In this document: piece after piece, positions 3,520-61,337 of the stretch
How positions within the stretch are numbered: position 1 is the first letter of the stretch
Layout: each line of letters starts with the position of its first letter
Assembly (NCBI GenBank): GCA_005222975.1
Contig: NJBI01000009.1
Coordinates: forward strand, 1-64,000
DNA length: 64,000 nucleotides
Reading direction: 5' to 3'
From: Promethearchaeota archaeon Loki_b31
GTDB taxonomy: Archaea > Asgardarchaeota > Lokiarchaeia > Sigyniarchaeales > SOKP01
Notes under the pieces: generated by a model
Database searches by the model: none
Told to the model about the DNA's origin: nothing
Seen by the model: only the letters and a program-made list of their open reading frames with translations
Position numbers and translations under genes: made by a program

Positions 3520-4695
3520 CTATTTTCTTAAGAGTCGCTTTTGAACTACATAATGCGTTCTTGTTGGGGTCCCGTGCGGAAAGATTGTCTTTATCGCTCG
3601 GTCGTTATTAGCCCAGATTGTAGTTCCTTCGTAGTAGTTAAATCCATAGGAGCTGGACGACAGAAACATTCCGATATTGTGAAGCGCGGAGAAGATTCCC
3701 TTTCCAGCGTATTCTTTTTTTATCATAACCGTGTCTACATTTAAGTGGGTTAACGGTTCTCCGTTCCACAGCTGAAACAAGTTCGGTTGGCACATAATAA
3801 CGCCTACCAGCTCGTTAGTGTTTCGGTCGAAACCGAAGATGGCCATAGGAACGATTTTTTTGAGGTCGCAAGATTTCCAAGTTTCTCGGAATCCAGGCAT
3901 ACCGGCGTAATCTTGGGGAAATTCTTCGCTAACTAATTTTAGTACTTTGCACGCTTGAGCGTACCCGTCCATCATTTCTTCAAATCGAGCTCTACCACCT
4001 GGCGCATCCGCAAGTACGGCGTATAGAGATTGAGATGCTAAACCCATTATTTGTTCCTTTAAATCCCTTATTTCGTCGAGGGGCAAAAACCTGACTGCTA
4101 TGTTTTCGTCTAGATTTTTACCTTTGTCCCACTTTTTTAAGAAAGTGTCAAGGCACGAGTACTTCGAGTCTTTTTTGTAGCCTAATTGTTGCAAGTACTC
4201 CAGAACTTTTGACTCGGGATCGCCGAACGTTACGCCGCTCATCATGGGAGCTTCAAACCCTTCGGTCTGAAAACCGATCCCGCCGACAAATTTCGGGTAA
4301 TTGATTGGACCACGGAGCTTTTTCTTTTTGTTTTCGCGAACGAAATTTTCACACTCATTCATGAGCTTTTTACAAGAAAGAAAATTTTTGGCATGAAGCC
4401 AGCCAAAAGTCGGGCATGACATTCCGTAACTTTTGTAATCACCGTCTATTTGACAAATTACGAATCCCGTTAAGATTCCGTCCTGAGTAGCGTAAGAAAA
4501 TCTAATTTTATAGTCTGGTTCCGAAAATTTCTCTGTAAAATAATCTACAAGTTCTAAAACAATCACGAGTTTTAGCCTTTCATCAGGAACGTATAAAAGC
4601 TCAGTTAAAACAAATTGAATTTCCGAAATATTTCGAGTTGAAGCGACAGTAAGCTCCTTTTTTTTAAAAATTGGTTTTTCTAAACTAATTTCCAC
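3520..4695 (-). CDS. Tandem GNAT-fold acyltransferase (YghO-like)
   Basis: FGWL...KKLRGPIN...GF N-domain; C-terminal MIKKEYAGKGIF acyl-CoA motif and TIWANN. Confidence 0.7.
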   Translation of the reverse strand: MEISLEKPIFKKKELTVASTRNISEIQFVLTELLYVPDERLKLVIVLELVDYFTEKFSEPDYKIRFSYATQDGILTGFVICQIDGDYKSYGMSCPTFGWLHAKNFLSCKKLMNECENFVRENKKKKLRGPINYPKFVGGIGFQTEGFEAPMMSGVTFGDPESKVLEYLQQLGYKKDSKYSCLDTFLKKWDKGKNLDENIAVRFLPLDEIRDLKEQIMGLASQSLYAVLADAPGGRARFEEMMDGYAQACKVLKLVSEEFPQDYAGMPGFRETWKSCDLKKIVPMAIFGFDRNTNELVGVIMCQPNLFQLWNGEPLTHLNVDTVMIKKEYAGKGIFSALHNIGMFLSSSSYGFNYYEGTTIWANNDRAIKTIFPHGTPTRTHYVVQKRLLRK

Positions 4696-4791
4696 TCTTT
4701 AATCAACTTTTTATATTTCTATAATAATTTAAGATAATATCCTTCAAAGAAGAATATATTTAAAGAAAAAAATCTAAATTCAAAAAAAAAA

Positions 4792-5370
4792 CTAGTAAAA
4801 TCCAAAGATTAGAGCTGCAAAACTACTTAAAGTTAATGCTATAGTTAAAGCAATTATTAATTTATATCTGTATACTTTCTTCTGTTTGGCGATTAATTCT
4901 TCTCGTTTTATTCTTTCCTCCATGTTATCTTTAAATAAAAATCGCCGTGAAGCCTTAGTTCTTCCTGCAAAAGCTAACATTGCACCCACTTTTTTATCTC
5001 TAAGAGTAGAAACAGCAGAAAACTTAAACGAAATTATAAGATAAATCCCTGAAGGGAAAAGAAGTAAAGTGTAACCTAATCGACGTCCTGTTAGTATATA
5101 AGAAAGCCTATAAGAGAACAAAATAAGTGCTATAAATGTAAAGAAAAAATTATTAAAAGCAAATGCTCTAATTAGATAGATATTAAATGGGTTCCGAGAT
5201 ATCCACAAAAATAAAACTACAAACGCGATAAGAACAACTATAATGATAAATATTAAAGAAACTATCAAATTGCTTAAAATAAGGATAGCAGTTAAGACCA
5301 TACATAGTGTGTTAAGGAATGTAAAAACTATATCTAGAATTTCATATTTGTTTCTTGGTAAATCATTCAT
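4792..5370 (-). CDS. Integral membrane protein (about 5 TM)
   Basis: Multiple hydrophobic helices; AT-rich relative to neighbours. Confidence 0.7.
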   Translation of the reverse strand: MNDLPRNKYEILDIVFTFLNTLCMVLTAILILSNLIVSLIFIIIVVLIAFVVLFLWISRNPFNIYLIRAFAFNNFFFTFIALILFSYRLSYILTGRRLGYTLLLFPSGIYLIISFKFSAVSTLRDKKVGAMLAFAGRTKASRRFLFKDNMEERIKREELIAKQKKVYRYKLIIALTIALTLSSFAALIFGFY

Positions 5371-5414
5371 ATATTTCCACTATAAAATTCGATATATAAA
5401 TGTTGTTGATTAAG

Positions 5415-6650
5415 TTAAATGTTAATTTGTAGATTTAATATGTTTACTAAATCTTGACCTACTGGAAGAAGGTCAGCTTGTGGAACCTCTCCCTCGAAAT
5501 AATTAAATACTACATAATCTTCGAACTTATTTTCGGTTTTGTTGTAGTTCCAGCAGGGCACGTATCCTCTCGCCCGAAACCCGAATTCGTAAAATAATTG
5601 CTGATCTTCCGGACGAAATGCTGAAATAAACGCTTCGCAATATCGTATTTTGTTAATTTTCATACTCTTTAGGAATTCTTCGAGATATACATACAATTCT
5701 TCTAAAGATTCAACACGATACTTAGTTTTCTCGAAGTTTTGAATTTGAGATGTATGTAAAAAAGTAAAGTAAGATTTTGTGCCCCTAATAAAAAATTGGT
5801 TGTACCCGTACCCGTACTTGTCGGTAATTAAATCCTTTCTGAAAGCTTTTTGTAGCTCGAAAATTTTGTTGTAGTCCAAGTCGAGGTCGGGGGAGGCCAA
5901 CTGAAAGTTCCCAAGTTTGTAAAGTTTGTCGCAGTGCAAAAAACTGTCCAAAGCGTTTTCGATCAATACCGGCGTTTTTCGTTCCCTGTACTTTTTAAGA
6001 GTTTTTTCGTGATAAATTACTCCCATAACATCTGACTCAATTCGGTTGTAGAATACATCTTTATTGGGAAAGAAAGCAACCGTATTTATCCCGCACACGG
6101 AAGTAATGTACTGAGATGCTGCGTGAGCGGTTCTGTTTTCGCAATACCACATCAAAATCTCCTTCTGATAAGTTTTCCACATCCAAGCATACGAACCAAT
6201 TATGGATTTCGTTACGTCTAAGATTCGTTGGTATTTCTTTTTTATCATAAAACCGCCAGAATATCCTTTTTTGTGCTCGAAATCTAATGAACATCGAAAA
6301 CAACCGGCGACCTCTCCGTTTATTTCGAATAAAATAAAGTGGTTGTCGGGACTCTCGATCATCTTCTTAACCATGCGCTCGTCTTCGATCTCTTTATAGG
6401 GATATGTACCATTGTACACCTCTTTACAAATACTTGCGATAATTTTAGCATCTTTAGGCTTAGCAAGTACTAAAGTGGGGCTTATTTTATCGCTTCCCAT
6501 TTTAGTGTCGATTAAAAAGTCAAGATCCATGCCTTTCTCTAAGTCTAAGTCCAATACATCTTCAAAAATTTCTAGAAATTCGTCAATTGAGTTTGGACCA
6601 AGTTTTTTGTATGGTATAATGGGATATTGAATTATTTCTTGGGTTATCAT
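5415..6650 (-). CDS. Multi-domain GNAT-like protein
   Basis: AKPKDAKIIASICKEVYNGTYPY, MIKKKYQR, ENRTAHAASQ, FGFRARGYVP patterns. Confidence 0.65.
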   Translation of the reverse strand: MITQEIIQYPIIPYKKLGPNSIDEFLEIFEDVLDLDLEKGMDLDFLIDTKMGSDKISPTLVLAKPKDAKIIASICKEVYNGTYPYKEIEDERMVKKMIESPDNHFILFEINGEVAGCFRCSLDFEHKKGYSGGFMIKKKYQRILDVTKSIIGSYAWMWKTYQKEILMWYCENRTAHAASQYITSVCGINTVAFFPNKDVFYNRIESDVMGVIYHEKTLKKYRERKTPVLIENALDSFLHCDKLYKLGNFQLASPDLDLDYNKIFELQKAFRKDLITDKYGYGYNQFFIRGTKSYFTFLHTSQIQNFEKTKYRVESLEELYVYLEEFLKSMKINKIRYCEAFISAFRPEDQQLFYEFGFRARGYVPCWNYNKTENKFEDYVVFNYFEGEVPQADLLPVGQDLVNILNLQINI

Positions 6651-6784: not shown

Positions 6785-7675
6785 ATGAAAACACACAAAA
6801 ATGGTTTATTAAAGATGTTTGTCAATCAAAAATTAGATGATTGGTCAAATTCTTATTGGGAGCGCGTTACTCGGAACATTGGCCCCATAACTTATCAAGA
6901 GCAAGAAACGATTAGGACCTCGAGAGTTGCAGTTCTCGGAGTGGGCGGGTTAGGAGGTCCTTTAGCAGAAAACTTGGTTAGAGCTGGCTGCCAAAACTTA
7001 GTAATTTGCGATCACGATGTTTTCGACGAGTCCAACTTGAACCGGCAAATCTGTACCATTGATGATGTTGGTAAAAGAAAAATCGATGTTATGGAAACTT
7101 TCTTGCGAAAGATCGATCCTGAAGTTAATATTAAAAAATATTTTAAAATTATTGAGAGAAACATAGATTCAGTTCTCGAGGATGTGAAAGTTGTAGCCCT
7201 CACTTTAGACGACCCCGCTACCTCAATATTTATCGCTAGAGAGTGTCGAAAAAGAAATATTCCCATGATCGAGTCGTGGGGCGTTCCTTTTTTGTTCACT
7301 TGGTGGTTCACTCATGACAGCGTAGACTACGAAAATTGCTACGGTTTAGACACGTACCATTACAGTTATTCTGAGCTTAGAAACCCGAAAAAAGAAGTAA
7401 ATCTAGCCGTCTACCAAGCCTTATTACCGAAAGTTTTTCGAATGCCAGGAGTCAGAGAAAAGTACGACCGAGAACCGGGAGCTTTCGAAGAGATGATGTC
7501 TGGAAACATCGGAGCTCGTTCTTTTACCCCGTTTGTAAGGATTACTTCTGATTTTCTTTCTGTGGATGTGATTTTTTCCGGCATACTTAAAGTAAAACCT
7601 ATGAATTTAGCCCCCAACCTAAAAGGGTTCGATTATATACAAATGAAAGTTTGCGAAACGATTTTAACGCATTAA
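6785..7675 (+). CDS. ThiF/MoeB/HesA (E1-like) adenylyltransferase
   Basis: RNIGPITYQEQ, VLGVGGLGG, DHDVFDESNLNRQ, VGKRK; lacks the C-terminal CxxC Zn sites. Confidence 0.85.
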   Translation: MKTHKNGLLKMFVNQKLDDWSNSYWERVTRNIGPITYQEQETIRTSRVAVLGVGGLGGPLAENLVRAGCQNLVICDHDVFDESNLNRQICTIDDVGKRKIDVMETFLRKIDPEVNIKKYFKIIERNIDSVLEDVKVVALTLDDPATSIFIARECRKRNIPMIESWGVPFLFTWWFTHDSVDYENCYGLDTYHYSYSELRNPKKEVNLAVYQALLPKVFRMPGVREKYDREPGAFEEMMSGNIGARSFTPFVRITSDFLSVDVIFSGILKVKPMNLAPNLKGFDYIQMKVCETILTH

Positions 7676-7758
7676 ATTTCTATATTTATTTTTAAAAAAA
7701 AAAGCAAATCCTTGAAAGTTAATTCCATAAAATAAAGGTAAATAAAAGAATTTTAAAT

Positions 7759-8676
7759 TCATTTATTAAAGTTGTTAAAAAGCGAGCCTAAACTCCTCTC
7801 TACTTTTTCGAGGAATTTAGGATTGCGTTCCAATCTACTCGAAAAATATTGGTGTAAATTCTTGTAAAACAACTTCTCGTTTCCAACTAAAAGTTGAGCG
7901 TCTAAATTGCTCGTTATTAGGTAAATAAATAGCCGAACAAAAGCGTTATGAGCTATTTCCATATCAGATGGAGTTAAATCGTAATTGTCGTGTTCAGCGT
8001 TGTTTCGGATTGTTATATACTTAATTAATTCTGTGGTTACCTCCTCAGGAAAGTTTAATTTCGCTATTTTTTCAGCCATAATCTCATGTTCTACTTTAGC
8101 GTTTTTGGTATTTTTGGGTTTTTTACCATCGTCTCCAAACTTCTGGCGGTAGAGTGTTTGCAACTTGTTGTATAGTTTTACATAGAACTTATAGTTGTTG
8201 TACCCGCACATATCGAACCATTCATCGATTTTAACAGCTAAAAAGACCCGTTTTATTTCGTTCTTTATTGTGTCTTCCAAACCTAGACTTTCAGTCTCAG
8301 TAGAAGGTATTTTCTTTACTTTTGACACAAGAGTGCTAATCCTTTTTGCTATTACTTCCAACAACTCGTTTCTTTCTGCCATCTCTTGCCGTAATTGGTC
8401 GTTTGCTAAATCACACTGATTTAAGTTAGTAAAATTATTATCAACCGGAGCTTGATCGTTATTTCGCGCACGATCGAGGCAAAAGATTAAGAAGTTCGAT
8501 ATATCTTTTACCATACGACCTCGACTGCGGAGTAGGTTTTGTTTTAGTTGTTTAGGTGTGATTGCTCTCTCGCTAAAGTTTCTGATGGCGATTTTGAGCT
8601 CATCTAACTCTCCCTCGTCAAAAATTATTTTTTCTATCACTTCTTCGAACTCCTCAACTTCTTGCGTTGTTGCCAT
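7759..8676 (-). CDS. Coiled-coil protein with a C-terminal HEPN-like domain
   Basis: IRNNAEH matches RxxxxH at ~7990-8007; start overlaps the upstream stop (TAATG). Confidence 0.55.
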   Translation of the reverse strand: MATTQEVEEFEEVIEKIIFDEGELDELKIAIRNFSERAITPKQLKQNLLRSRGRMVKDISNFLIFCLDRARNNDQAPVDNNFTNLNQCDLANDQLRQEMAERNELLEVIAKRISTLVSKVKKIPSTETESLGLEDTIKNEIKRVFLAVKIDEWFDMCGYNNYKFYVKLYNKLQTLYRQKFGDDGKKPKNTKNAKVEHEIMAEKIAKLNFPEEVTTELIKYITIRNNAEHDNYDLTPSDMEIAHNAFVRLFIYLITSNLDAQLLVGNEKLFYKNLHQYFSSRLERNPKFLEKVERSLGSLFNNFNK

Positions 8677-11600
8677 TAAATCGCCCCCATATCTCCTTCG
8701 ATGTATCGTTTAAACCCATCGAAAATCTTAGAATACATCTCGAAGGTTTCTTTGCTGCGCCTTTCTATGCCTTCCTCTTCGAAAGATATGTTTCCGCATT
8801 TAGTATGGAAATCCGTTAGTTCGTTGGCGGAAAACGGAAATCCCTCTACATCTGATATTGACTTGATAAATTTGTTGATGTCTGCCCTCATAATCGCGTA
8901 ATTAACGCTATAATAAGAGTTATATATTGCGTGAAGGAACTTTTTAAGTAAGTTTTTGCCGATTTTAAGCGCTTTTTCGAATTCTTCGCTTTTAATAGAT
9001 TGATGCATTTTAAAATGTTCGTAGTATAAGATTGGAGCGAAATGCTTGGTAAAAGCGTTCTTTAGGTTTTTAGCGTTAATTTTTTGTACTTGTGAAGAAC
9101 TCTCAGATTTATCGGAGTTTTCGGATTCCACATCTAACGGTTCGTAGGAGATTACCGCATTTCTCTGGGTTTCGTAGTAGTCGTGTAAAACTTCGTCGTA
9201 GTGCGGTCCGACAACGAAAGAAGTTTGTAAGGATTCCGAACCGCTTGCCCTTCTTGGATGACTCTCAACTAAGTATCGATGTCTTACCAAAATTTCGAAA
9301 GTTTTGTTTTTGATCTCTTTTTCTCTTTTTTTATCTTTAGTTATTTTCAGAATGTAAGGATGCAGCCATTCTGTTAGCTCTTTCTTAACTTTTTGTTCGT
9401 AAAGGTTGCCTACTTGGTCCAATTTTTTTAAGTTGTTTAGAAACTTTATTATTCCCTCAATTAACACGCTATAATTTCCGAAATCTTTCTGGAACAAAGT
9501 CTTTTCTGCTCGTTGTATTATTCGTTTTTCAGCGTTTTCCAAATCGTACCCTTGCTTTCCCATGTTGGCTACAATTTCTTCCCAAGACAGCGGTTTTACG
9601 TCCCTTACTTCTTTCAAATCAAATTCTACAGGAAAAGGTTGGTAAATGTCTTCTCGTTTTACCACGGCCTCGTCTTTTTTCATGCTTGCGATGTATTTCA
9701 ATTGGTATCCTTCGTTTCTACTGCGACTATAATACCCTATCCCGTGAAGAGATTCTAAGTTCATTAGAGAGCCAAGCGTCGCGCTATCTCTTTTATCGGT
9801 CGCTTTAAAAGTAACTAAGTTTTCGAAGTAATTGAACGCGTTAGGGTGTATATATCTAATTTGAGAAGCTGAGCAGATCGTTCCAAAACCTTTTTGCTGA
9901 AAAGGTTCGAGAAACTTGTCGATTATACCGTAATTAACTTTTTTATCTATAAAAAACCCGTCAAAAATTACATCTAAATGCGGTACAATTAAGAATTTAG
10001 GGTAATAAGCCTTTTCGGTCTTTAGATAATGGATAAACTTAGAAAGAATAACGAACGTAAAGTAACACTGCTTATCGTAGTTTTTAACTTCCGAAAAATC
10101 GATAATTACCGTTTTGTCGTGCATTATAAGCTCGTAAGAGGGAATAATCTCTTGCTTATCTAATTGTTGGCGTTGCATGAAGCTTATGTCTTGGGAGGTG
10201 AACTCGCTGAAAAACGATAGTAACGAATCGGTAATAGGTGACTTTTCCCACTCTCTCATAGTAGTTAGGTCTAAAGTTAAAGTAGAAACATCTATATTGG
10301 GATTACGCGCGATAGTATTTTTGAAGGCGTCGATCGTCCTCTCGTCTTTTTTGAAGCACAACGCAAAGGCATCGAACATGTAGTCCAAATAGCCTATGTT
10401 GTCTTTATCGTAGGGAAGTTCCGAAAAAAGAGGATTAACTAGAAATGTTTTGCCAACTTTGAGGTACAAAAACTTATCTTCGTATATCGTCCCCTCGAAA
10501 ACACTCATTAATTTAGACCAATTACCGGTGAAATCGAAAATTACAGATGGATATCCCGCTTTCACGAGTTCCGCAACGATTTTTTGACACAACGCTTCTC
10601 TACTCGAATTTGTCCCGTTAGTTATGAATAGGGAGCGTAACTGCTCGAGACTAAACCCCATTGGAACTTCATTTTCTAAGAACTCAGTGTTTATGGTGTG
10701 GCCAATAGTAATAAAGTTAGTTAATTGTAAAGGTGTGTTAAATTCTGCGGCTAACCTAGTCTCGATCCCCTTTTTGAATTGGTCGGAAATTTCGGTTATA
10801 AACATAAGAGTTTTTCCTTGAAACATCAAATAATTCAAATGGGTACCGTTCCTCCTAAAAAACTTGTTTTTGAGCGTTTCGAACAGGAGCCCCGATTCTA
10901 ACTCGTTTTTTCTAAGCTGTTTTAACTCGTAAGTAACAAAAAATTGCTTGAAGCTTTTTCGCAACACCAAACTTTGATTTTTTAACTTTTGCTCTATCTC
11001 GTCAATAATCTCGTAGTCAAGAGTAGGAGCTTTTAAGATTGCCGAAGTGGAATAAGTTATAATAACACTCCAGATGCCCGATCGAGAGCTTAGCCATTTA
11101 TTTCCGTCTATAAATGATTCCGTTCTTGTTAGCAATTTTTGCTGTTCTATGTCTTTTAAGAATTTAAAACCTTCTTTATCGAACTGATGGAAGTTTAAAG
11201 GAGTTAGTTGAATCGTGGTTGTAAAAGGCATTTTTTCGTGGATGAGAGCTTCGTAAAACTTACTCGCAGAGCAATAGGGCGGCGGATGAGTGAAATACGC
11301 GTTATTAATCTTTATTCCCCCGATTATTTTTCCTTCGACTTGGTAAAAAATAGTCTCGGGCGCTTCTGATACCTTGAAAAACTTAATATCAGAAAATGGA
11401 TCCACGACCTGGATGTCGTTCGATTTAAATAACTTGTTTTTGATTAGAAAGAAAAACACCTCACGCCACCAAATTACTATTATTGCTATAAGAATCGTAA
11501 GAGTTGCTAAAAATTGTGCTATTATAGGTAAGTTAAATACTAGAAGCAACCGATCTAGACATATAACAATCGCTAAAATGTAGCTTGCTTTCAATATAAT

Positions 11601-14181: not shown

Positions 14182-16053
14182 TTAATCTTCTAAGAATGAG
14201 CTATATTTTATTTCGTGCTTAGGTTTGTCTTTTCTTATAAAATTATATTCTATTTCAGAATCCAATTCGTATAATTGTGGGACCTCTCTCTCTTGTTGTC
14301 TTACTACGATGTTTTCTTTAATGGTATCCTTTTCGATCTGCTCTAACACCTTAAAATCATTTTCTTTTCCAAAACACTCGTAGCCAAATTGAACCATCTG
14401 CTCGTCTGTGAACTCTTCCTTAATGTATAGCAAATCGGTCTCGCTAAATTGTGCGTTCTGCAAGTAATAAGGGGTTTTAAATTCGGTCGTTAGCTCTTTT
14501 TTAGTCTTGTAAAACTTAAGGTAGAAATATGCGATGACGAAAAGATAAATCCCCATAACAGCAAACCCGATGTTATTGAACAGTCTCAGAAGGAAATGCA
14601 ATTGCGAAAAATAGATAACAAGCAGTACTATAGAGTATCCGAGGAACGGAATCGAAGTCATCCTTAGACTAGAACGAAACTTAATGTCTGCGTTTTGGTA
14701 CATCTCGATCGAATTAGTTCTTTTGTCGCGAGATTCGATTAGTTGGTACTTTTTCTCCAAGAATCGTAGTAAAGTCGCGATGTTATATCGATCGATAACG
14801 TGTAAATTTGTTTTTCTTTGGTATGGGAAAAGAATCGATTTTTCCAGGCATTTCGCGGGAATTTTGGTAACAAAAATGGGTTCAATTAAAACTTTGTATT
14901 GAGTCTGTCCTGAAATGAAAAATAGTTTTTTGTTTTTTGCGCTTTCTTCGGCCGTAAATCTTACTTGTAAGTATTTTTGAAAGAAATTTCGAAACTTCTC
15001 GCCGTTAACGACGTCTTCAAATATAGCGTCTTTAATTCTTAAAAGATCATCTATATAATGGTTCGCTGTAAGTACTGAGTCAGATTTTTGAGTTTTCGAG
15101 TAAGTTTTATAGCCTATTTTCTCTTCGTTTACAAGTATCGTTCCTTCTAAGTCGCAAAGTTTAATTGGTACGAGATATATTAGTTTCAAGTTGTTGTTAA
15201 CGCTTACGAGCTTGAACCCGATGGAATCGATATTCTGGAAAAATGGCATTAAAACATTTAATGTATTTGGAATTACGTAATGTCCTGAATTTTTTAACGA
15301 TTCTTCGATTTTTGATTTAGTTTCTTCCCGCTCATCTCGTATTTTTGATATTTTTGGAACATTTTCAACTTCAAAAATCTCACTTATCTCCGGAACAAAA
15401 GAGGTTTCTTCACGGGAATCTTCTTCTAGCGATTTAGGTTTTTCAACCACAAAAGATTCTTCATTGAATATATTATCAATCTGTTCCTGAAGTTGTTCTT
15501 CGATTTCTTCAATTTCTACTTTAGATTCTTTTGACGATCTTTCTAAGATGGTGGGATGAGAAGCTGTAAGTCGAGAATAATTAAATTTATCACTAAACCA
15601 CTGTTTTTGAATAGTTTCGAAGGGTTTTTCTTCTCTTTGGAACTTTTCCTGCGGGAGTTCCTCCTCAACAATTATGTCAGCAACTTCGAAGGTTTCAATA
15701 TTATCAACTTCGGTTTCTTTTTCTTTCTTTAATATTTCAGTGGTTTTTTCTATTACATGATTCTGTTTATTAACAAAATTTTGTTCTTGAAATTCACCAA
15801 GAAGATTTTTCGCTTCCTCTATAAATTTTCTAGCCGTAGCTATACCAACTCCAGGAACTTCAGATAGTTTCTCAGGCGTTAGTTCGGCAAGCTGTCGATA
15901 AGTGTAAATTTTTCTAGCGTTTAGCTTTTCAGCGGTACCAGGGCCAATGCCTTTAATTTTAGTTAGGTCGTTGGTAGTTTGGGGTAATTTATCCGCTCGT
16001 TCTTCGAGAACTTTGACAATTATTTCCGGCGATTTATGATAAACATTTGTCAT
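14182..16053 (-). CDS. Membrane-anchored helix-hairpin-helix DNA-binding protein
   Basis: N-terminal LTKIKGIGPGTAEKL...LSEVPGVGIATARKFI, acidic linker, two TM helices near the C-terminus. Confidence 0.75.
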   Translation of the reverse strand: MTNVYHKSPEIIVKVLEERADKLPQTTNDLTKIKGIGPGTAEKLNARKIYTYRQLAELTPEKLSEVPGVGIATARKFIEEAKNLLGEFQEQNFVNKQNHVIEKTTEILKKEKETEVDNIETFEVADIIVEEELPQEKFQREEKPFETIQKQWFSDKFNYSRLTASHPTILERSSKESKVEIEEIEEQLQEQIDNIFNEESFVVEKPKSLEEDSREETSFVPEISEIFEVENVPKISKIRDEREETKSKIEESLKNSGHYVIPNTLNVLMPFFQNIDSIGFKLVSVNNNLKLIYLVPIKLCDLEGTILVNEEKIGYKTYSKTQKSDSVLTANHYIDDLLRIKDAIFEDVVNGEKFRNFFQKYLQVRFTAEESAKNKKLFFISGQTQYKVLIEPIFVTKIPAKCLEKSILFPYQRKTNLHVIDRYNIATLLRFLEKKYQLIESRDKRTNSIEMYQNADIKFRSSLRMTSIPFLGYSIVLLVIYFSQLHFLLRLFNNIGFAVMGIYLFVIAYFYLKFYKTKKELTTEFKTPYYLQNAQFSETDLLYIKEEFTDEQMVQFGYECFGKENDFKVLEQIEKDTIKENIVVRQQEREVPQLYELDSEIEYNFIRKDKPKHEIKYSSFLED

Positions 16054-16510
16054 AGGGATCTAATCGAAAAAAATAATCCCAACTATTTAAACAAAAAATT
16101 AGAAGTAGATTAAAATTCTTCTCGTTCCATTTCAAATAGACAAATTTTCGTAATTTTTCATAAAAACAATTTTTTATTTAAATAAGGCTATCGGATTAGT
16201 TAATAGATATACTATTTTAACAAAGTTCTTGCCAAATTAAAGCCCACAAAACACCCAGAGTTGTGATAAACAAGTCTCCCCTTGCTTTTTCTAACGAGTA
16301 AGGCTCTTAATTAGGCAAGAACGACTCTTTTTATTGTTAGCAAGCAATAATAATAATTTTTTTTATTTATATATTTTAAGTCGCACTTTCTAGCAGTTCA
16401 TGAAAAAATGGTTTAACCAGTACTATAGGTGATAAATAATTTCTTTAACAAACTTTACAAGCGCTCCAAAGGATAAGGAAGACTTTAAAGATGAGGAGAT
16501 ATTTCAGTAT

Positions 16511-18961
16511 GTGCAAGACGAAAGGATCCTTCGAGTTTTGCTAGAGCTAAAAATATTTAAATTGCGAGAAATCCAGAAAGAAGCGATTCAGAAAGGGCTA
16601 TTTTTTCGCAAGTCGTTTTTAGTGTGTGCTCCCTCTGGTAGCGGAAAGACTTTAATTGGAGAAGTGTGCGCTGTTAATAATGTGTTTCAAAATTTTGGTA
16701 AATCAATTTATCTAGTGCCATATAAAGCGTTGGCCACCGAGAAATACGTTCACTTTAAAAAAAGCTACGAGCGATTTGGTGTTAAAACCGAGCTGTCGAT
16801 TGGCGATTACGACGTGGACGACGACAAGTTAGAACAAGCGGACATAGTTGTTACCACGTACGAAAAGATGGATTCCATTTTAAGAAATTTTTACGACAAA
16901 GAATGGATTTTTAACATTTCTACTATAATAATAGACGAGATACACATTATCGGAGAGTCCGATCGGGGCCCACGCTTAGAGTCGCTAATAGTAAGATTGA
17001 ACGAATTTTTGCACAACCCGCAAATCATTGGACTTTCGGCAACCATCGCAAACCCCGAGTTTTGTAACGATTGGCTTACTTCTTTAGGAAATCATACGAC
17101 TCTTATTATCTCGGACGAGCGACCGGTACCGCTTCATTATAGAATTGAAGTGACTCAAAACAAAGATTCTACACTTAAAAAAATAATTAAATCCACTCTA
17201 AACGATGGCGGTCAGGCGTTGATTTTTCTAAACAGAAGAAAATCGACTCAAATGACGGCTCAAAACTTAAAAAACCTAATAAAAACACATATTAACGAAA
17301 ACGAGCTAAAAATGTGTAAAAAGATTGGAGATAGACTCAACAAAATTAAGGGAAGGCATAACGAGCTAAAAAAAGTCGTAAAATGCGGTGTTGCGTTCCA
17401 TCACGCGGGGTTGCTTCCTAAAGAGAGAAAGCTCGTCGAGGACGCCTATCGGAAACACACATTAAAGGTTATCTGCAGTACTACCACGTTAAGCGCGGGC
17501 ATAAATGTCCCTGCCCGAGTAGTGATAATAAAAGATTTTAAAAAATATGTTACTTCAGGGCATAACATAAAAAATTTTAAAGGTTTTTACGAAAATGGAG
17601 ACGGATTTTCATACTTTAAAGCGTTTTCAGCCAACGAGGTGTTTCAGATGCTCGGTCGTGCTGGTCGACCCGGTTTAGACGAAGTTGGGTTTGGAGTAGT
17701 GCTAGTAAAGGACGTTAACGAGCGAGATTGGGTCGAAGATCATTACTTTCAAAATTCTTTTACATCTAAAACTTACTTACCGAAATACAACGATCTAACT
17801 TCCGGGTTAAACAGAGTAAACACCTTAAAAGAGCAAGTTCTACTACGGGTGTACGAGGAGAAGCACATAACTCTTGAAAAACTAAAAGAATTCTTTCAGA
17901 AAACTTACTTTTGGTATAGTATAAAAAACAAGATGAAAACGCAAGACATCCCCATAGACCAATTCCTCATGATTAAAGAAATAACTCCGACAAACATTTT
18001 AAAACTTCATTCGGACCCTCAAAAAGTAAAAGAATTGACTAACAACCACCATCAAATAAAAATTACCAAGCTTAATAGTTCAACTATTTCAGGATATGTC
18101 AAAACCGATTTTGGCGTGTTTCTTTGCGAGTTCGACGTGGACCTCGGCATTAGGTGTTCTTGCGGTTTCGAAAACGGAATATCCGATAACTACGCTAACG
18201 ACCAGTTTTCGTTCGAGTTTTGCGACCACATCACTGCCTTTTTGCTTCATCTAATAGAAATACCGGACAAAAACTTTCAAAAATATGTGAATGACATCGT
18301 GCCTAAATCCGTTAAAAACCAATACATTCTCAACTATCTTTTTGAGAAAGGTTTAATTCTAAAAAGGGAGGACGGTACCATCAAGTGCTCGCAGTTTGGT
18401 AAGCTTATAATTCGGCTTTACTTGTACCCCGTATCTGGAGTGTTAATAAGGTATAAGCTCGAGCGAGCCGAGATAGAGTCTTTTCAAGATATCGTAAAAG
18501 CAGCTTACGAAGTGCTGAAAGCAGAAGGGAGAACGAGGAACTACAAGTTGCTCCAACCGGTATTAGAATGGTGCGACGAAGAAACACTCGATGAGATTTT
18601 AGAAAGACACAAAATTATGGCAGGCGACTTGTACTCCGTTCGGGACAACCTTGAAAGAATTATTACGTTTATAGGGATTATCGCGATACACCTAAGCGAA
18701 TCCGACTTCGATTTACAAGATAAACTAATAAACATCGCTGAGATGGCGGAAACCCTCAAAATTAGGATACATTACGGGATCAGAGAAGAACTGTTCGATC
18801 TGGTTGTGAGATTAAACAATGTGGCAAGGGTTCGGGCCCGCATACTTTACAACGCTGGCTACCATACGGCAACCCAAGTTAAGAAAGAAAATCCTTACGT
18901 TTTAAATCGCAAAACGGGGTTAGGAATTAACCTGTGTAAAAAAATTATAGGAAAAAAGTGA
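16511..18961 (+). CDS. hel308: Ski2-like/Hel308 (Hjm) SF2 helicase with an inserted SWIM finger
   Basis: APSGSGKT, DEIH, LSAT, FHHAGL, TLSAGINVPAR, QMLGRAGRP, C-terminal RVRARILYNAG; CSC...CDH insert. Reading frame is open upstream to 16436. Confidence 0.85.
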   Translation: MQDERILRVLLELKIFKLREIQKEAIQKGLFFRKSFLVCAPSGSGKTLIGEVCAVNNVFQNFGKSIYLVPYKALATEKYVHFKKSYERFGVKTELSIGDYDVDDDKLEQADIVVTTYEKMDSILRNFYDKEWIFNISTIIIDEIHIIGESDRGPRLESLIVRLNEFLHNPQIIGLSATIANPEFCNDWLTSLGNHTTLIISDERPVPLHYRIEVTQNKDSTLKKIIKSTLNDGGQALIFLNRRKSTQMTAQNLKNLIKTHINENELKMCKKIGDRLNKIKGRHNELKKVVKCGVAFHHAGLLPKERKLVEDAYRKHTLKVICSTTTLSAGINVPARVVIIKDFKKYVTSGHNIKNFKGFYENGDGFSYFKAFSANEVFQMLGRAGRPGLDEVGFGVVLVKDVNERDWVEDHYFQNSFTSKTYLPKYNDLTSGLNRVNTLKEQVLLRVYEEKHITLEKLKEFFQKTYFWYSIKNKMKTQDIPIDQFLMIKEITPTNILKLHSDPQKVKELTNNHHQIKITKLNSSTISGYVKTDFGVFLCEFDVDLGIRCSCGFENGISDNYANDQFSFEFCDHITAFLLHLIEIPDKNFQKYVNDIVPKSVKNQYILNYLFEKGLILKREDGTIKCSQFGKLIIRLYLYPVSGVLIRYKLERAEIESFQDIVKAAYEVLKAEGRTRNYKLLQPVLEWCDEETLDEILERHKIMAGDLYSVRDNLERIITFIGIIAIHLSESDFDLQDKLINIAEMAETLKIRIHYGIREELFDLVVRLNNVARVRARILYNAGYHTATQVKKENPYVLNRKTGLGINLCKKIIGKK

Positions 18962-34654: not shown

Positions 34655-34821
34655 AGAGCCTAATACTATTTTTATTTTCCAATTTCAATTTAGTTTAAAG
34701 AGTTAGAATTTTTAATCCAATTTTTTATGAATAAATGAAATTGTGTACAATTTTTTTCTTTATTAGTAACCGTGTCTAATCTGAATTAATTTAAATTACA
34801 TTATGGAGTTGATACAAAAAA

Positions 34822-36088
34822 ACGTCAGATTTAGACCAAGTAAAAGGGATCAACGCTCGACAGATAAAGCTCTTGCAAGAGAGCGGTATTAGCACGGCGG
34901 AAGCTTTAGCAATGTCCCCACATAACATCATATCGGAGATCGACGGGTTAGGCGATAAAACAGCCAAGAAACTGATTTGGAATGCGCGAAACGCGTTAGG
35001 TATGACTGAGTTCATAACTGCCGATGACATCGACGAGAACACCGAGTACATTACCACTGGCTCTTCCGAATTAAACAGAATTTTAGGCGGCGGATTCCAA
35101 ACCGGAAAACTTACCGAAGTGTACGGACCCTTTAAGTCCGGTAAAACCAATTTAGCTCATACGATCGCTGTAACCATCCAGCTTCCTAAAAAAAAAGGAG
35201 GTTTAGGTTCCACAGTAGCCTACATCGACACCGAAAATACTTTTGCTAAGGAAAAAATCAAAAGAATCGCCAAAAGGTTTGGACTGGATCCGAAGAAGGT
35301 TCTATCGCAAATTTATCACGCCAGGATTTATTCATCGGACCACCAATCGCAAATGATTCAAAAAGCTGAAACTTTATGCAAAACTCGAAATGTGCGTTTA
35401 ATTGTAGTAGACAGTTTGATGGCGCTTTTGCGGGCCGAATATGTGGGTATTGGCATGTTAGCTCGTCGACAAAGCTTTTTGAACAATATGATACACGCCC
35501 TTTCCCGGGTTGCAGAGACATACAATTGTGCTGTTCTTCTTACCAATCAAGTTTCGACTAAGATGATGGGAATGTTTTCAGGAAACGACGCAATTGGCGG
35601 AAATAGTGATAAGATATTTCATCAATCACTTCTAAATCGTAGCCCATGGCTGCCACTTTCGTGTGATGTTTAAAACTAAAGGTTTCTCTTCCAATAATTC
35701 GTTAAAGCGGAGAGCTATAATAGTGGATGCGCCAGACTTGCCACCTGAAGAAGCAGAGTTTTACATAACGAGTGTAGGAATTGCCGACACGGAAAAGGGA
35801 GAGGTTCCCGAAGCTCAAGGCTTAGATTTCGAAGTCGAGACATTGTACGAAGAAGAGAGTAACGCCGAAGAGAGCGAAGTTTCCGATAATGGTAATGGTA
35901 ACCATTCGCTCATTGATGTTAAAGGAATTGGAGCCGGCACCGCAAAGAACTTAATAAAGGTCGGAGTAGGCTCTGTAAAAGAGTTGGTAAGTTCTGACCC
36001 CGAAAAAGTGGCTTCTAAAATTAACGGAGTCTCTTCTAAAATGGTCCTTGAATGGCAAACCAACGCAAAGACCTTGTTGAGCGTTTAA
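34822..36088 (+). CDS. radA: RadA/Rad51-family recombinase, two exons (34822-35604 + 35636-36088), 411 aa if spliced, extra C-terminal HhH
   Basis: N-terminal HhH, ITTGS..L..ILGGG, GPFKSGKT, YIDTENTF, LIVVDS, LTNQV; joining ORFs 34873-35673 and 35663-36088 restores IGGNIVAH...DAPDLPPEEAEFYITSVGI. Confidence 0.85.
35605..35635 (+). other. Candidate 31-nt BHB/BHL-type intron in radA
   Basis: Removal restores frame and motif; GTGAT/ATCAC stem, GGAA/TTCT central helix, ATA and AAA bulges. Confidence 0.7.
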
Positions 36089-36213
36089 AAATTAATAATT
36101 ATTACTATTTTTTTTTTCCTATCTACTTACTATTAGTGTTCTCTATTATCAGTGGCTTAGTTCCAGTAACTTTAGTTCTTATTTTTATATCTTTACTTAT
36201 TCGAAGAAAGAAG

Positions 36214-36441
36214 TTAAAGAACTTCGTCATAAAAATAGTACATGATTACGGCTGAAAAAATCCCTGCGGCAATAAAAGACATCGCTGACCACTCGGATGT
36301 AAACAATACAACCCAGAAATTCTTTTGAACTTGAGAAAAAGTTGTATATGCGCCCCAAATCGCTAAATTTATGGCACATGCTAAAAGAAATGCAATTACC
36401 ATCCAGATAGCAAAAATTATTATTACTTTTATAATCCACAT
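36214..36441 (-). CDS. Small 2-TM membrane protein
   Basis: Hydrophobic 75-aa ORF. Confidence 0.5.
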   Translation of the reverse strand: MWIIKVIIIFAIWMVIAFLLACAINLAIWGAYTTFSQVQKNFWVVLFTSEWSAMSFIAAGIFSAVIMYYFYDEVL

Positions 36442-58206: not shown

Positions 58207-59148
58207 ATGGAACTTGATAAAATAAAGCGCATATTGGTTGTAGGTGCTGGCACGATGGGACACGCCATTGCACAAGTCTATGCTACTGCCGGGTTTGAAG
58301 TAGATCTTGTAGATTTAAATCAAGAGGTTCTTGATAATGCCATAAATAAGATTAAATCAAACCTTTCTTTGTTGGTAGAGTATAAGCATGTAAAAAGTGG
58401 TGAAATTTCAAATATTTTGAATCGTATCCATCCATCTACCGATTTAAAAGTTGCTGCCCAAAATTGCGATTTAGTTTTAGAAGCAGTTTCTGAAGATCGT
58501 AACATAAAGCGAGATGTTTTTTCTCAATTAAATGAATTCTGTTCTGAAGATATTATTTTAGCAAGCAATACTTCTGAATTAAATATATTCAATGTCGCAA
58601 AAGTTAAAAATCCGAAACGCTTGGTAATCCACCATTGGTTTCATCCACCATACATTATTCCTTTAGTTGAAATAGTAGCTGGGCGTAAAACTTCTTCTGA
58701 AGTCATTGATATTTCGTTTAAATTATTAGAAAAAATTGGCAAAAAACCTTTAATCTTGAAAAAGTTCACGAATGCTTTTATTGTCAATAAAATCCAGCAA
58801 GCAATTAATTCTGCGGTCTTTGCTCTTTTAATACAAGGCATAGCTTCTCCAGAAGAAATTGACATGGCGATTAAGAACAGTGTAGGTATACGTCTGCCGT
58901 TTGCCGGAGTAGCACAAAATCTTGATTTTGTAGGACTCGATGTTGTATATGATATTATCAAGAATATGGGCATGGATCTCGCGCTACTTAAAAATAAAGT
59001 GAAGAATGGGCAATTAGGGGCTAAAACATCAAAAGGTTTTTACGATTACCAAGGTCGAACTGAAGAAGAAATCCTTACTAAGAGGGATAAACTTTACTTA
59101 CAAATGCTCGATTTTCTTAAACAAATGAACGCATTTAAACCAATTTAA
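58207..59148 (+). CDS. 3-hydroxyacyl-CoA dehydrogenase
   Basis: GAGTMG, EAVSE, ASNTS, HWFHPP, LGAKTSKGFY. Confidence 0.9.
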   Translation: MELDKIKRILVVGAGTMGHAIAQVYATAGFEVDLVDLNQEVLDNAINKIKSNLSLLVEYKHVKSGEISNILNRIHPSTDLKVAAQNCDLVLEAVSEDRNIKRDVFSQLNEFCSEDIILASNTSELNIFNVAKVKNPKRLVIHHWFHPPYIIPLVEIVAGRKTSSEVIDISFKLLEKIGKKPLILKKFTNAFIVNKIQQAINSAVFALLIQGIASPEEIDMAIKNSVGIRLPFAGVAQNLDFVGLDVVYDIIKNMGMDLALLKNKVKNGQLGAKTSKGFYDYQGRTEEEILTKRDKLYLQMLDFLKQMNAFKPI

Positions 59149-59219
59149 AGAAAAACATTTAATTCAATAATTTTCATTTAATAATAAAATTATAATATTG
59201 AAACTGTAATGAAATTAAA

Positions 59220-61337
59220 ATGCCCAAAACACTAGATGCTTTTATCGAGGATAAAAATATCAATTTAATTAGAAAAAGGGATTTAAAAAGATCTTCAAAT
59301 CTGAAAAAGGAATTTAATGAAATCAATCAACACCTTTATGCGAAATTAAAACACACGGAAACTGATACAAGAGCTCGTTCAAATGAAATTTTAAAACTTA
59401 TTTTATGTAAATTAGTTGATGAAATAAGTAATTCTTTACCTGATTCTATCATGTCGTTTAGCATTAAACAGGGTGAAACAGAAAAAAAATTATTCGATCG
59501 GCTTCAGAATTTCTTTAAGGAGAATCTAAAAGATAAATATAAGAATCTCATTGATGAAAATGAAAAAATCAATTTAAACAAAGAGTTGGTATTTTTAATT
59601 GTTGAAAAATTACAAAGAATATCTCTTCTTGAATCTTCTAAAGATGTTTTGGCTGATACTTTTGAGATCTTTGTAAGTAGATTATTAAAAGAAGAAGGAG
59701 GGCAATTCTTTACTCCCACGAGTATAATTAAATTTATGGTGCGCTATTTAAATCCCGAGACGGATTCTAAGATTATAGATCCTGCGTGTGGGCATGGTGG
59801 TTTTCTATTAGAATGCAAAGACCTCTTATGGTCAAAAATTGAACAGAAATACGGAGCTCAAATAGATATTTTTAAAAAAAAGAAAATCGAAGTTATATCC
59901 AATCTCTATGGGATTGATAAGGATTCATATCTAGCAAAAATCTGTAATTTATACTTAGATATAATAAGTCAGGGTAAATCTAATATATTTTGCGATAATT
60001 CTCTGGATCCTAATAACTATAGTAAAGAATCTTCAGATGCAATAAAAAATAACCATTTCGATTTTGTGGTTACTAACCCCCCTTTTGGCGCAAAAATACC
60101 CATTGATAATAAGGAAATTTTAAAAAAGTATGCTTTAGCACATAAGTGGGACTACAAAGATAATATATGGGTTAAACAAAATAAGTTAGTTAAAAAACAA
60201 CCACCTCAGATTCTATTTATAGAAAGATGTGTACAACTATTAAAAGACAGTGGAAAATTAGGAATTGTTTTACCTGAAGGTCTTTTTGGAAATCCTTCAA
60301 ATAGATATATCTGGGAGTATTTACGGAGTAAAGGTAAGATAGTAGGAATTATTAGTTTAGATCAGAACACATTTCAGCCTTACACATGTAATAAGACAAG
60401 TATTCTTTTCTTTCAAAAATTAAAAGAAATCCCCAAGAACTATAAAATTGATTTTGGAATTGTTGACAATGTTGGCCACGATAAAGACGGAAAAGTTTTG
60501 TATAAATTAAATAAGGATGGAAGTATAAAATATGATCAGTATAAAAAACCGATTGTCAATAATGAATTAATTAATTTACACCTTAAAATTAATGAAAGTG
60601 CTGAATTCAGCTACTTAGAAAACCAAAAAGTTTTCAAATTAAGTTTAAATCAGATAAAAAACAATATTTTCATACCTAACTATTACACAGGCGTAGAAAA
60701 AACTCTAAAATCTTTAGAAAATAATAAGGACTTTCAATTAGTATCTATAGGTGATTTAGTTAAAAAAGGAATAATCTACACAAAAAATAAAGGGTACTTA
60801 CCAAGAGGAGACGAAATTGGCTCACACGTTTATGGTTTAGGAGATATTCCGTTTATCCGTACTAGCGAAATTAATAAATGGGAAGTCGATCTAAATTCAC
60901 ATAAAAAAACTTCCAACGAAGTATACGACCAATTTAAAGACAAACAGAATATCAAAATTGGAGACATTCTGTTAGTAAAGGATGGCGGGCCAAATCTAAT
61001 TGGAAATACAGCATTTATTACTGAGTTAGATACAAGAATTATTATCCAGAGTCATATATTTCAGATAAAAACTCTTAAAAATAACGATTATATTGATTCG
61101 CACCTTTTATTATACCTTCTAAATCTTGACATTGTTCAAAAGCAAATAAAAGCAATAACCTTCGTTCAAGGCACTATTGCTACAATTGGTAATAGAATAA
61201 TGGATGTAATTTTACCAATTCCATCTGAGATTAATAAAAGAAAAGTAATTTCAAAATATATTAAAGAAATTATTGATAATAAAACAGAAATAAGAAAGAA
61301 AATAAATAAACTCTCTATTAACTATTTCAGTGATTAA
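59220..61337 (+). CDS. N6-adenine DNA methyltransferase fused to one HsdS-like target-recognition domain
   Basis: GQFFTP, DPACGHGGFL, TNPPFG, LFIERC; C-terminal IPFIRTSEI, GDILLVKDG, LPIP. Confidence 0.85.
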   Translation: MPKTLDAFIEDKNINLIRKRDLKRSSNLKKEFNEINQHLYAKLKHTETDTRARSNEILKLILCKLVDEISNSLPDSIMSFSIKQGETEKKLFDRLQNFFKENLKDKYKNLIDENEKINLNKELVFLIVEKLQRISLLESSKDVLADTFEIFVSRLLKEEGGQFFTPTSIIKFMVRYLNPETDSKIIDPACGHGGFLLECKDLLWSKIEQKYGAQIDIFKKKKIEVISNLYGIDKDSYLAKICNLYLDIISQGKSNIFCDNSLDPNNYSKESSDAIKNNHFDFVVTNPPFGAKIPIDNKEILKKYALAHKWDYKDNIWVKQNKLVKKQPPQILFIERCVQLLKDSGKLGIVLPEGLFGNPSNRYIWEYLRSKGKIVGIISLDQNTFQPYTCNKTSILFFQKLKEIPKNYKIDFGIVDNVGHDKDGKVLYKLNKDGSIKYDQYKKPIVNNELINLHLKINESAEFSYLENQKVFKLSLNQIKNNIFIPNYYTGVEKTLKSLENNKDFQLVSIGDLVKKGIIYTKNKGYLPRGDEIGSHVYGLGDIPFIRTSEINKWEVDLNSHKKTSNEVYDQFKDKQNIKIGDILLVKDGGPNLIGNTAFITELDTRIIIQSHIFQIKTLKNNDYIDSHLLLYLLNLDIVQKQIKAITFVQGTIATIGNRIMDVILPIPSEINKRKVISKYIKEIIDNKTEIRKKINKLSINYFSD

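Follow-up and report, generated by a model that had tools for sequence, protein, structure and literature searches.

We analysed the first 64,000 nucleotides (nt) of contig NJBI01000009.1 from Promethearchaeota archaeon Loki_b31 (GenBank assembly GCA_005222975.1), a stretch referred to below as the window, and focus on a RadA-family gene on its forward strand (approximately 34822 to 36088) whose reading frame is interrupted by 31 nt. The source is a metagenome-assembled genome (MAG) of a Loki-type Asgard archaeon of the Promethearchaeota (3.52 Mb in 99 contigs, 31.5% G+C, 92% completeness, 6% contamination). Positions 35605-35635 are very probably a tRNA-type bulge-helix-bulge (BHB) intron in the pre-mRNA of an accessory RadA-family recombinase, and this intron would be spliced by the endonuclease EndA together with RtcB. 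The locus is laid out as follows:

34822 to 35604, forward strand: predicted exon 1, with the HhH_5 domain and most of the Rad51/RecA core (translation P0001; Pfam and NCBIfam assignments made on an intron-less orthologue)
35605 to 35635, forward strand: candidate 31-nt intron, with the h′ stem at 35606-10/35625-29, an inner stem at 35613-15/35621-23 and the 3′ strand of helix H at 35630-33; an exact indel relative to orthologues
35636 to 36088, forward strand: predicted exon 2, which completes the Rad51 core (IVAHGCHF...DAPDLPPEEAEF) and continues with an acidic linker and another helix-hairpin-helix (HhH) domain; stop codon at 36086-36088 (translation P0002)

The upstream frame runs through ...GNDAIGGN into SDKIFHQSLLNRSPWLPLSCDV and a stop codon, so that ...MGMFSGNDAIGGN is followed by 22 unrelated residues before termination; the conserved continuation, IVAHGCHFRVMFKTKGF...DAPDLPPEEAEF, begins at 35636 in another frame. 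Deletion of the 31 nt from 35605 to 35635 gives GGA AAT ATC GTA GCC CAT and joins ...DAIGGN to IVAHGCHF...; the boundary can slide by one base (35605-35635 is equivalent to 35606-35636) because both flanking bases are A. An initial annotation of this DNA had proposed the insert, its base pairings and the frame-restoring deletion, and all three are confirmed at the positions that it gave.

Orthologues of the gene in the genus form two classes: those with a 31-nt insert at exactly this site, and those with an exact 31-nt gap. The genus carriers comprise seven copies in five genomes (G000, the source genome, on contigs C16 and C63; G017; G021; G008 on contigs C12 and C49; and G015). Outside the genus, LW40_87, Loki_b32 and co228_481 carry the insert among species representatives, and a metagenome scan with a loose pattern (120 matching stretches, six of them radA-like among 80 loci examined from these) contributed six further radA-like contigs. 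The total is 15 distinct insert-bearing sequences from separate assemblies, every insert being 31 nt long; 68 distinct orthologue sequences lack it, and the 22 of these that were aligned have an exact 31-nt gap. Clusters of shortened products of 266-291 amino acids (aa) are also present in the protein collection, the two largest having 63 and 31 members. As their length is that given by the broken frame, independent assemblies have probably yielded the broken form many times.

Selection on the two sides of the insert was compared among the insert-bearing copies. For the first 58 codons downstream, where dS ranges from about 0.5 to saturation (>2), the ratio of nonsynonymous to synonymous substitution rates (dN/dS) lies at 0.01-0.06; for exon 1 it is 0.02-0.06. 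The downstream frame stays open for 145-151 codons in every insert-bearing copy. Given the low dN/dS and the open frame downstream, we conclude that the frame that can be reached only by removing the 31 nt is the translated one, and that the radA-like gene is not a pseudogene.

That the insert is an assembly or sequencing artefact, or the gene a plain pseudogene, might be suspected from the fact that 31 is a common k-mer size and from the 6% contamination of the MAG. However, the insert occurs, with sequence variants, in many assemblies from different groups and assemblers; the clusters of shortened open reading frames (ORFs), with their 63 and 31 members, have the length expected of insert-bearing alleles; and the dN/dS values downstream of the insert are not those of a decaying gene. 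We regard the probability of an artefact or a pseudogene as close to negligible.

RNA structure of the insert and predicted cleavage sites

The insert and its flanks can form a central helix, H, in which GGAA (35599-602) of the upstream exon pairs with TTCT (35630-33) of the insert through one G-U and three Watson-Crick pairs. On the insert side lies the helix h′, formed by GTGAT (35606-10) and ATCAC (35625-29) and continued by an inner stem of GAT (35613-15) and ATC (35621-23). The elements flanking the predicted cuts are:

35599 to 35602, forward strand: 5′ strand of the central helix H, GGAA, in the exon; pairs with 35630-35633 and is paired in 15 of 15 sequences
35603 to 35605, forward strand: 5′ bulge, AUA, with a predicted cut after 35604; its third base is A, or T in LW40_87
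35634 to 35636, forward strand: 3′ bulge, AAA, with a predicted cut after 35635; invariant in 15 sequences

Pairing was counted in an alignment (A2) of the 15 insert-bearing sequences. Helix H is 100% paired in all 15, although three of its four pairs vary (G-U/G-C; G-C/G-U; A-U/G-U/G-C). The change from A-U to G-C, seen in three sequences, couples a synonymous exon substitution (GGA to GGG) with a U-to-C substitution in the insert, and the G-U intermediate is also found. Helix h′ (GUGAU/AUCAC with the inner stem) is 96.7% paired and shows compensatory changes at five of eight pairs; the G015 sequence has a wholly different inner hairpin on the same outer stem. None of 500 shuffles reached the observed covariation score, and sliding the partner strand by 1-3 columns lowered pairing to only 28-53%. 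The exon base of H that coincides with the third position of a Gly codon is a purine in 15/15 insert-bearing sequences vs. 41/68 intron-less alleles (Fisher p = 0.0018, uncorrected for phylogeny). Inserts at the same site with compensatory changes, as envisaged in the initial annotation, are thus present in 15 sequences, in which both H and h′ covary.

The bulges AUA and AAA are conserved except for the third base of the 5′ bulge. The archaeal splicing endonuclease makes one cut in each bulge, after its second base. Cuts placed by this rule (35604/35605 and 35635/35636) coincide with the boundaries of the gap in orthologues and would restore GGN/IVAH. This agreement between predicted cuts and protein-implied boundaries had already been pointed out; the cuts also equal the exact 31-nt indel that distinguishes the gene from intron-less orthologues.

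The inverted repeat AGTGAT/ATCACT, the flanking AAAT direct repeat and the patchy occurrence on the gene tree (at least seven changes) would also fit an element that acts at the DNA level, i.e. a tiny palindromic mobile insertion that either inactivates the gene or is excised from the DNA, its alleles being dead or transient. To this explanation we can assign scarcely any probability: the downstream exon is under strong purifying selection, with dS > 2 within insert-bearing lineages; removal of the element with one AAAT repeat (33 nt) leaves the frame unrestored; and the covarying exon-insert pairs are not explained by a DNA palindrome. Moreover, no copy of the insert was found elsewhere in the genome except in the second radA-like copy on contig C63, and a repeated DNA element was rejected on this ground, the insert being present only in the two radA-like copies.

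Comparable inserts and the splicing machinery of the host

The genome was scanned for the H/bulge/h′ geometry with long open frames on both sides, and candidates were then checked by orthologue alignment. First scans for a BHB motif plus ORFs returned hundreds of AT-rich chance matches at gene boundaries; stricter structure filters, paralogue support and orthologue checks left three cases. A search for further split genes with BHB-bounded inserts, a follow-up foreseen in the initial annotation, therefore yielded three more (30-32 nt):

C45:8619-8648 (L251:720-749): 30-nt insert in a MoxR-like AAA ATPase, in frame and carrying TGA; junction ...GTFE/LSHPFLDRFG; present in 3 genus genomes, exact gap in 19
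C12:13923-13954 (L252, about 724-755): 32-nt insert in a ChlI/BchI-like Mg-chelatase ATPase; junction MNPE(E)/GELRPQ; present in 7 genus genomes, exact gap in 19
C98:16601-16631 (L315:702-732): 31-nt insert in an ABC-transporter ATPase; junction LDEPT(T)/GVDAS (Walker B/D-loop); present in 6 genus genomes, exact gap in 15

In the MoxR-like gene, H is UUCG/CGAA, replaced by UUUG/CAAA in G041 (a compensatory U-A/C-G change), and the outer helix is near-canonical as judged by eye. In the ChlI-like gene, H is CCGA/UCGG, and a competing hairpin of the insert, CGAAU/AUUCG, overlaps its 3′ strand; a placement of this insert based on the motif was rejected, as orthologue alignment puts the 32 nt 14 nt further downstream. 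The second base of the 3′ bulge varies freely in the ABC ATPase; its split came up as well when split ORFs matching one paralogue were screened for without reference to the motif. In the strict structure-plus-ORF scan, candidate lengths peak at 30-32 nt (4, 10 and 6 candidates) vs. 1-4 candidates at neighbouring lengths. The three further cases make recoding specific to a single gene unlikely and support a general splicing activity.

A rival explanation is recoding during translation: the ribosome would bypass the 31 nt by hopping, in the manner of T4 gene 60 or the mitochondrial byp elements, or would read the insert in frame and undergo a +1 shift at CUA-A. The insert is indeed free of stops in the upstream frame in every variant observed, and it holds a hairpin, as gene 60 does. 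We nevertheless judge recoding extremely improbable. There is no matched pair of take-off and landing codons (take-off would be at AAU, and the triplet before AUC is UAA), and AAU is followed by AGU and not by a stop. Substitutions in the insert follow base pairing, not codon synonymy (SDKIFHQSLL becomes NDFMHHESFL in G015), and helix H between exon and insert, which bypassing does not need, covaries. Finally, the MoxR-like insert lies in frame and contains TGA, so that a frameshift model cannot cover the class.

Four points weigh against the assignment of the radA-like insert to the BHB introns. First, the sequences that covary are related, and the shuffle statistics consequently overstate their independence. 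Second, no canonical exon-exon helix adjoins the 3′ bulge: C35598/U35637 and G35596/G35639 are unpaired, and the outer pairing is at best a GGC/GCC helix 5 nt away. Third, when the single sequence is folded to minimum energy, the hairpin forms and helix H does not; with RNAalifold, three of the four H pairs are recovered. Fourth, three of the four examples in the genome came from a scan that required the motif, although the ChlI junction and the ABC split are defined independently of it. Because its exon-exon outer helix is poor, the motif is a relaxed HBh′ or bulge-helix-loop (BHL) form and not a strict hBHBh′ form. An imperfect exon-exon helix and a relaxed, BHL-like motif had been noted before, and the base pairing bears this out. 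Relaxed HBh′/BHL motifs are included in the BHB family as defined for hosts of the (alpha-beta)2 enzyme (PMC6379350).

Two EndA paralogues, of 200 and 201 aa, are encoded in the genome. The paralogue on contig C13 (region of 36116-36340) shows the Tyr/His/Lys pattern of a catalytic subunit and corresponds to the catalytic half of two-domain enzymes; that on contig C79 (region of 5005-5253) has Asp in place of the catalytic His and matches the structural half. The alignment of the C13 catalytic subunit with the alpha subunit of A. pernix (3P1Z_B, E = 2.8e-34) covers its full length and places SKPR opposite EKPR, a segment that we take to be the crenarchaeal-specific loop. The lysine of that loop is needed for relaxed substrates (PMC6379350). 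RtcB is encoded on contig C84. The predicted (alpha-beta)2 type of the host EndA thus fits substrates with a relaxed motif. ARAGORN found only 14 tRNA genes in 3.5 Mb, six of them with introns, which is consistent with the heavily interrupted tRNA genes of Asgard archaea (bioRxiv 10.64898/2026.10.13.758758); interruptions probably keep most tRNA genes from being detected.

The non-canonical outer helix could also point to an RNA-level intron that is removed by machinery other than EndA and RtcB, for example by another structure-specific nuclease acting on the hairpin. This is very unlikely in our view, as the conserved features (the 4-bp helix, the pair of 3-nt bulges on opposite strands and the register of the cuts) are those that define an EndA substrate, the type of the host EndA fits, and the region has no match among Rfam families.

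We infer cleavage and ligation from the exact indel, selection on the post-splice frame, helix covariation and the presence of the enzymes. In the proposed mechanism for the BHB intron, exon GGAA would pair with UUCU of the intron to give the 4-bp central helix, the covarying intron hairpin would serve as the inner helix, and AUA and AAA would form the 3-nt bulges. The (alpha-beta)2 endonuclease would make one incision per bulge, behind its second base, and ligation of the two exons by RtcB would then restore GGN/IVAH and allow translation of a protein of about 411 aa. The expected spliced junction would read ...GGCGGAAAT joined to ATCGTAGCC..., with AIGGNIVAHGCHFR as the junction peptide. The weak outer helix would make this a relaxed HBh′/BHL substrate, matching a broad-specificity EndA.

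Identity, history and flanking signals of the radA-like gene

The identity of the gene was scored with Pfam and NCBIfam on the intron-less orthologue L029 (412 aa). This protein matches Rad51 (PF08423, E = 6.7e-70) and HHH_5 (PF14520, E = 6.6e-19), and it scores 331 bits against the NCBIfam RadA equivalog NF003301 (cut-off 259), which places it in the RadA/Rad51 family; at its C-terminus, it carries an extra acidic linker and a second HhH domain, matched at residues ~349-410. The source genome holds two further RadA-family genes, on contigs C13 and C50, with 41-42% identity to the window gene, and no match to the window gene was obtained in 17 of the 42 genomes of the genus, not all of them complete. 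With three RadA-family genes in the genome and this lack of a match in part of the genus, the window gene is an accessory RadA paralogue and not the housekeeping radA; the initial annotation had called it simply radA. Its neighbours encode a RadB/KaiC-like ATPase and several proteins without a family match; no marks of mobile elements were found among them.

The second radA-like copy of the source genome (C63:17784-18584, minus strand; L254:1457-2612) has ~89% nucleotide identity to the window gene and an identical 31-nt insert. Its homology to the window gene starts only at about codon 47 (KKLIWNARN), with unrelated sequence upstream, and it may be a duplicate that lacks its 5′ end, or may come from a strain variant to which unrelated sequence of the bin was joined. 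An intron-less allele at loci L346-L348 (JGI samples 3300040951-53) encodes an exon-1 protein 100% identical to that of the window, although its DNA is ~8% different and lies in another gene context; every difference in exon 1 is thus silent at the protein level, a sign of very strong constraint on the accessory recombinase. The full-length proteins P0003 and P0004, whose exon 1 is 100% identical, were considered as possible products of spliced transcripts. This was rejected, as the contigs that encode them look like DNA, both strands carrying neighbouring genes. The two proteins come from alleles of a relative that lack the intron, with ~92% nucleotide identity to the window and a different gene context.

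The insert is carried by 10 of 71 species-level orthologues, scattered on the gene tree so that parsimony requires at least seven changes. By their common site, length and outer stem, the radA inserts are clearly homologous. Such a distribution means that the insert was either gained once, long ago, and precisely lost many times since, or was spread through recombination or renewed insertion; precise secondary losses have been proposed for the cbf5 intron (PMC2738675). It is also conceivable, though unlikely, that the radA intron belongs to a genome-wide mobile population of ~30-nt BHB mini-introns in Promethearchaeota genes, which would be repeatedly gained and precisely lost, possibly by EndA/RtcB reversal followed by retro-insertion, and whose removal would be rate-limiting or condition-dependent, gating the accessory recombinase.

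By default, we read splicing of the radA-like pre-mRNA as constitutive, perhaps with some cost to expression. The initial annotation had gone further and proposed a switch like that of XBP1, in which splicing gates production of RadA. We find no support for such a switch: the gene is accessory, and the absence of the intron from 61 of the 71 orthologues, together with introns of the same type in at least three unrelated genes, argues against a gene-specific device. What stands of the earlier reading is the relaxed BHB intron with predicted cuts at the protein-implied boundaries, strongly supported by covariation, selection, the indel and the EndA type; the functional switch finds no support.

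Two signals precede the predicted start of the gene:

34752 to 34766, forward strand: promoter-like TTTTTTCTTTATTAG, resembling a B recognition element (BRE) and TATA box, ~55 nt 5′ of the start; conserved upstream of orthologues
34805 to 34813, forward strand: Shine-Dalgarno-like GGAGTTGAT, found in nearly all genus orthologues at a fixed spacing to the start

The motif TTTTTTCTTTAWWWA occurs 14 times in the window vs. 3.45 expected from shuffles; its copies include those at 4757, 14099, 27540, 31988, 34752 and 37958, and both the radA-like gene and the operon with the RadB/KaiC-like ATPase are preceded by copies. Motifs of the GGAGTTGAT type are complementary to the 3′ end of archaeal 16S rRNA. 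The start codon in 29 orthologues (loci including L021-L049) lies at a constant spacing behind this motif and varies between species (ATG, ATT, ATA or ACG), and the start of the window gene is most plausibly the near-cognate ACG at 34822-34824. Near-cognate starts seem to be tolerated, or to be used to hold expression low. A second frameshift near the start, suggested earlier from an out-of-frame ATG at 34803 and an A7 run at 34816-34822, was rejected on account of the conserved Shine-Dalgarno-like motif and start position in orthologues: ATG 34803 is part of GGAGTTGAT, and translation would start at ACG 34822.

Several other split frames were noted in the genome. An HdrA-like candidate on contig C17 was rejected as an intron, as its in-frame TGA lies inside a conserved FPTxDC motif and most likely encodes selenocysteine; ARAGORN places a tRNA-SeC on contig C59. 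HdrA-like genes with one in-frame stop lie at C17(-) 58767-60707, C23(-) 15829-17730, C61(-) 3785-5515 and C90(+) 7140-8855 (coordinates are strand-oriented, minus-strand values counting on the reverse complement; the stop was read as TGA in the C17 copy), and about ten other splits by a single stop in the same frame occur in the genome. A 31-nt stretch on the minus strand at C58:7862-7892, with a GC-rich hairpin (GAGGC/GCCUC) in a BHB-like register, lies between HdrA/MvhD-like and MvhG-like ORFs. This junction is probably a gene boundary with a chance motif; the stretch could also be an intron that fuses the MvhD-like and MvhG-like ORFs.

Relation to known introns and significance

The BHB intron of cbf5 was reportedly treated by Watanabe in 2002 and by Yoshinari in 2006. 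It lies in the pre-mRNA of a pseudouridine synthase in Crenarchaeota (Yokobori 2009, PMC2738675). The radA-like case resembles it in several ways: both are short introns in coding sequence, often with a relaxed BHB motif, that interrupt a highly conserved and functionally critical motif; both occur in hosts with a hetero-oligomeric, broad-specificity EndA; and both have a patchy distribution, in which precise secondary losses are inferred for cbf5 and may have occurred in radA. They differ in that the radA-like intron is found in Asgard archaea (Promethearchaeota), in an accessory RadA paralogue, is strictly 31 nt long and has counterparts of 30-32 nt in unrelated genes of the same genome; and splicing of cbf5 was shown experimentally, whereas that of the radA-like gene is predicted.

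In its substrate form, the radA-like intron resembles the relaxed HBh′/BHL tRNA introns cut by (alpha-beta)2 or epsilon2 EndA (PMC6379350, PMC5829648), with which it shares the 4-bp helix, the 3-nt bulges, the helix on the intron side, the weakness or absence of one on the exon side, and the type of enzyme in the host. Unlike these, it would be presented in an mRNA without a tRNA body, and its exon half is constrained by codons (GGR AAU). In Haloferax volcanii, the HVO_1309 mRNA has a 46-nt BHB intron in its 5′ untranslated region, shown by circRNA-seq and in vitro cleavage (PMC7714728). Both mRNAs contain an EndA substrate, predicted in the case of radA, but the HVO_1309 intron lies in an untranslated leader and interrupts no reading frame. 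XBP1 and HAC1 (processed by IRE1 with RtcB or Trl1) are alike in that a short mRNA intron, whose removal changes the frame, is spliced without a spliceosome and a tRNA ligase seals the exons. In contrast to the radA-like case, however, XBP1 and HAC1 are cut by stress-activated IRE1 and not by EndA, and both of their isoforms are functional parts of a signalling switch, whereas most orthologues of the radA-like gene do without the intron.

Among the papers that could be searched, crenarchaeal cbf5 (PMC2738675) is the only archaeal gene documented with an EndA-type intron in its coding sequence, as a 2020 paper states explicitly (PMC7714728), and we found none on EndA-type introns in Asgard protein genes. 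Our analysis extends the cbf5 case: splicing of this kind is implied for the archaea most closely related to eukaryotes, where it would act on a Rad51-like gene and, in the same genome, on at least three unrelated ones. Gene callers truncate such genes, as the clusters of 266-291-aa products illustrate, and Asgard proteomes, pseudogene counts and RadA/Rad51 phylogenies are affected as a result. If transcripts confirm the predicted junctions, splicing of mRNA by the tRNA-splicing machinery would be routine in Asgard archaea, which would bear on split genes and mRNA processing before the spliceosome.

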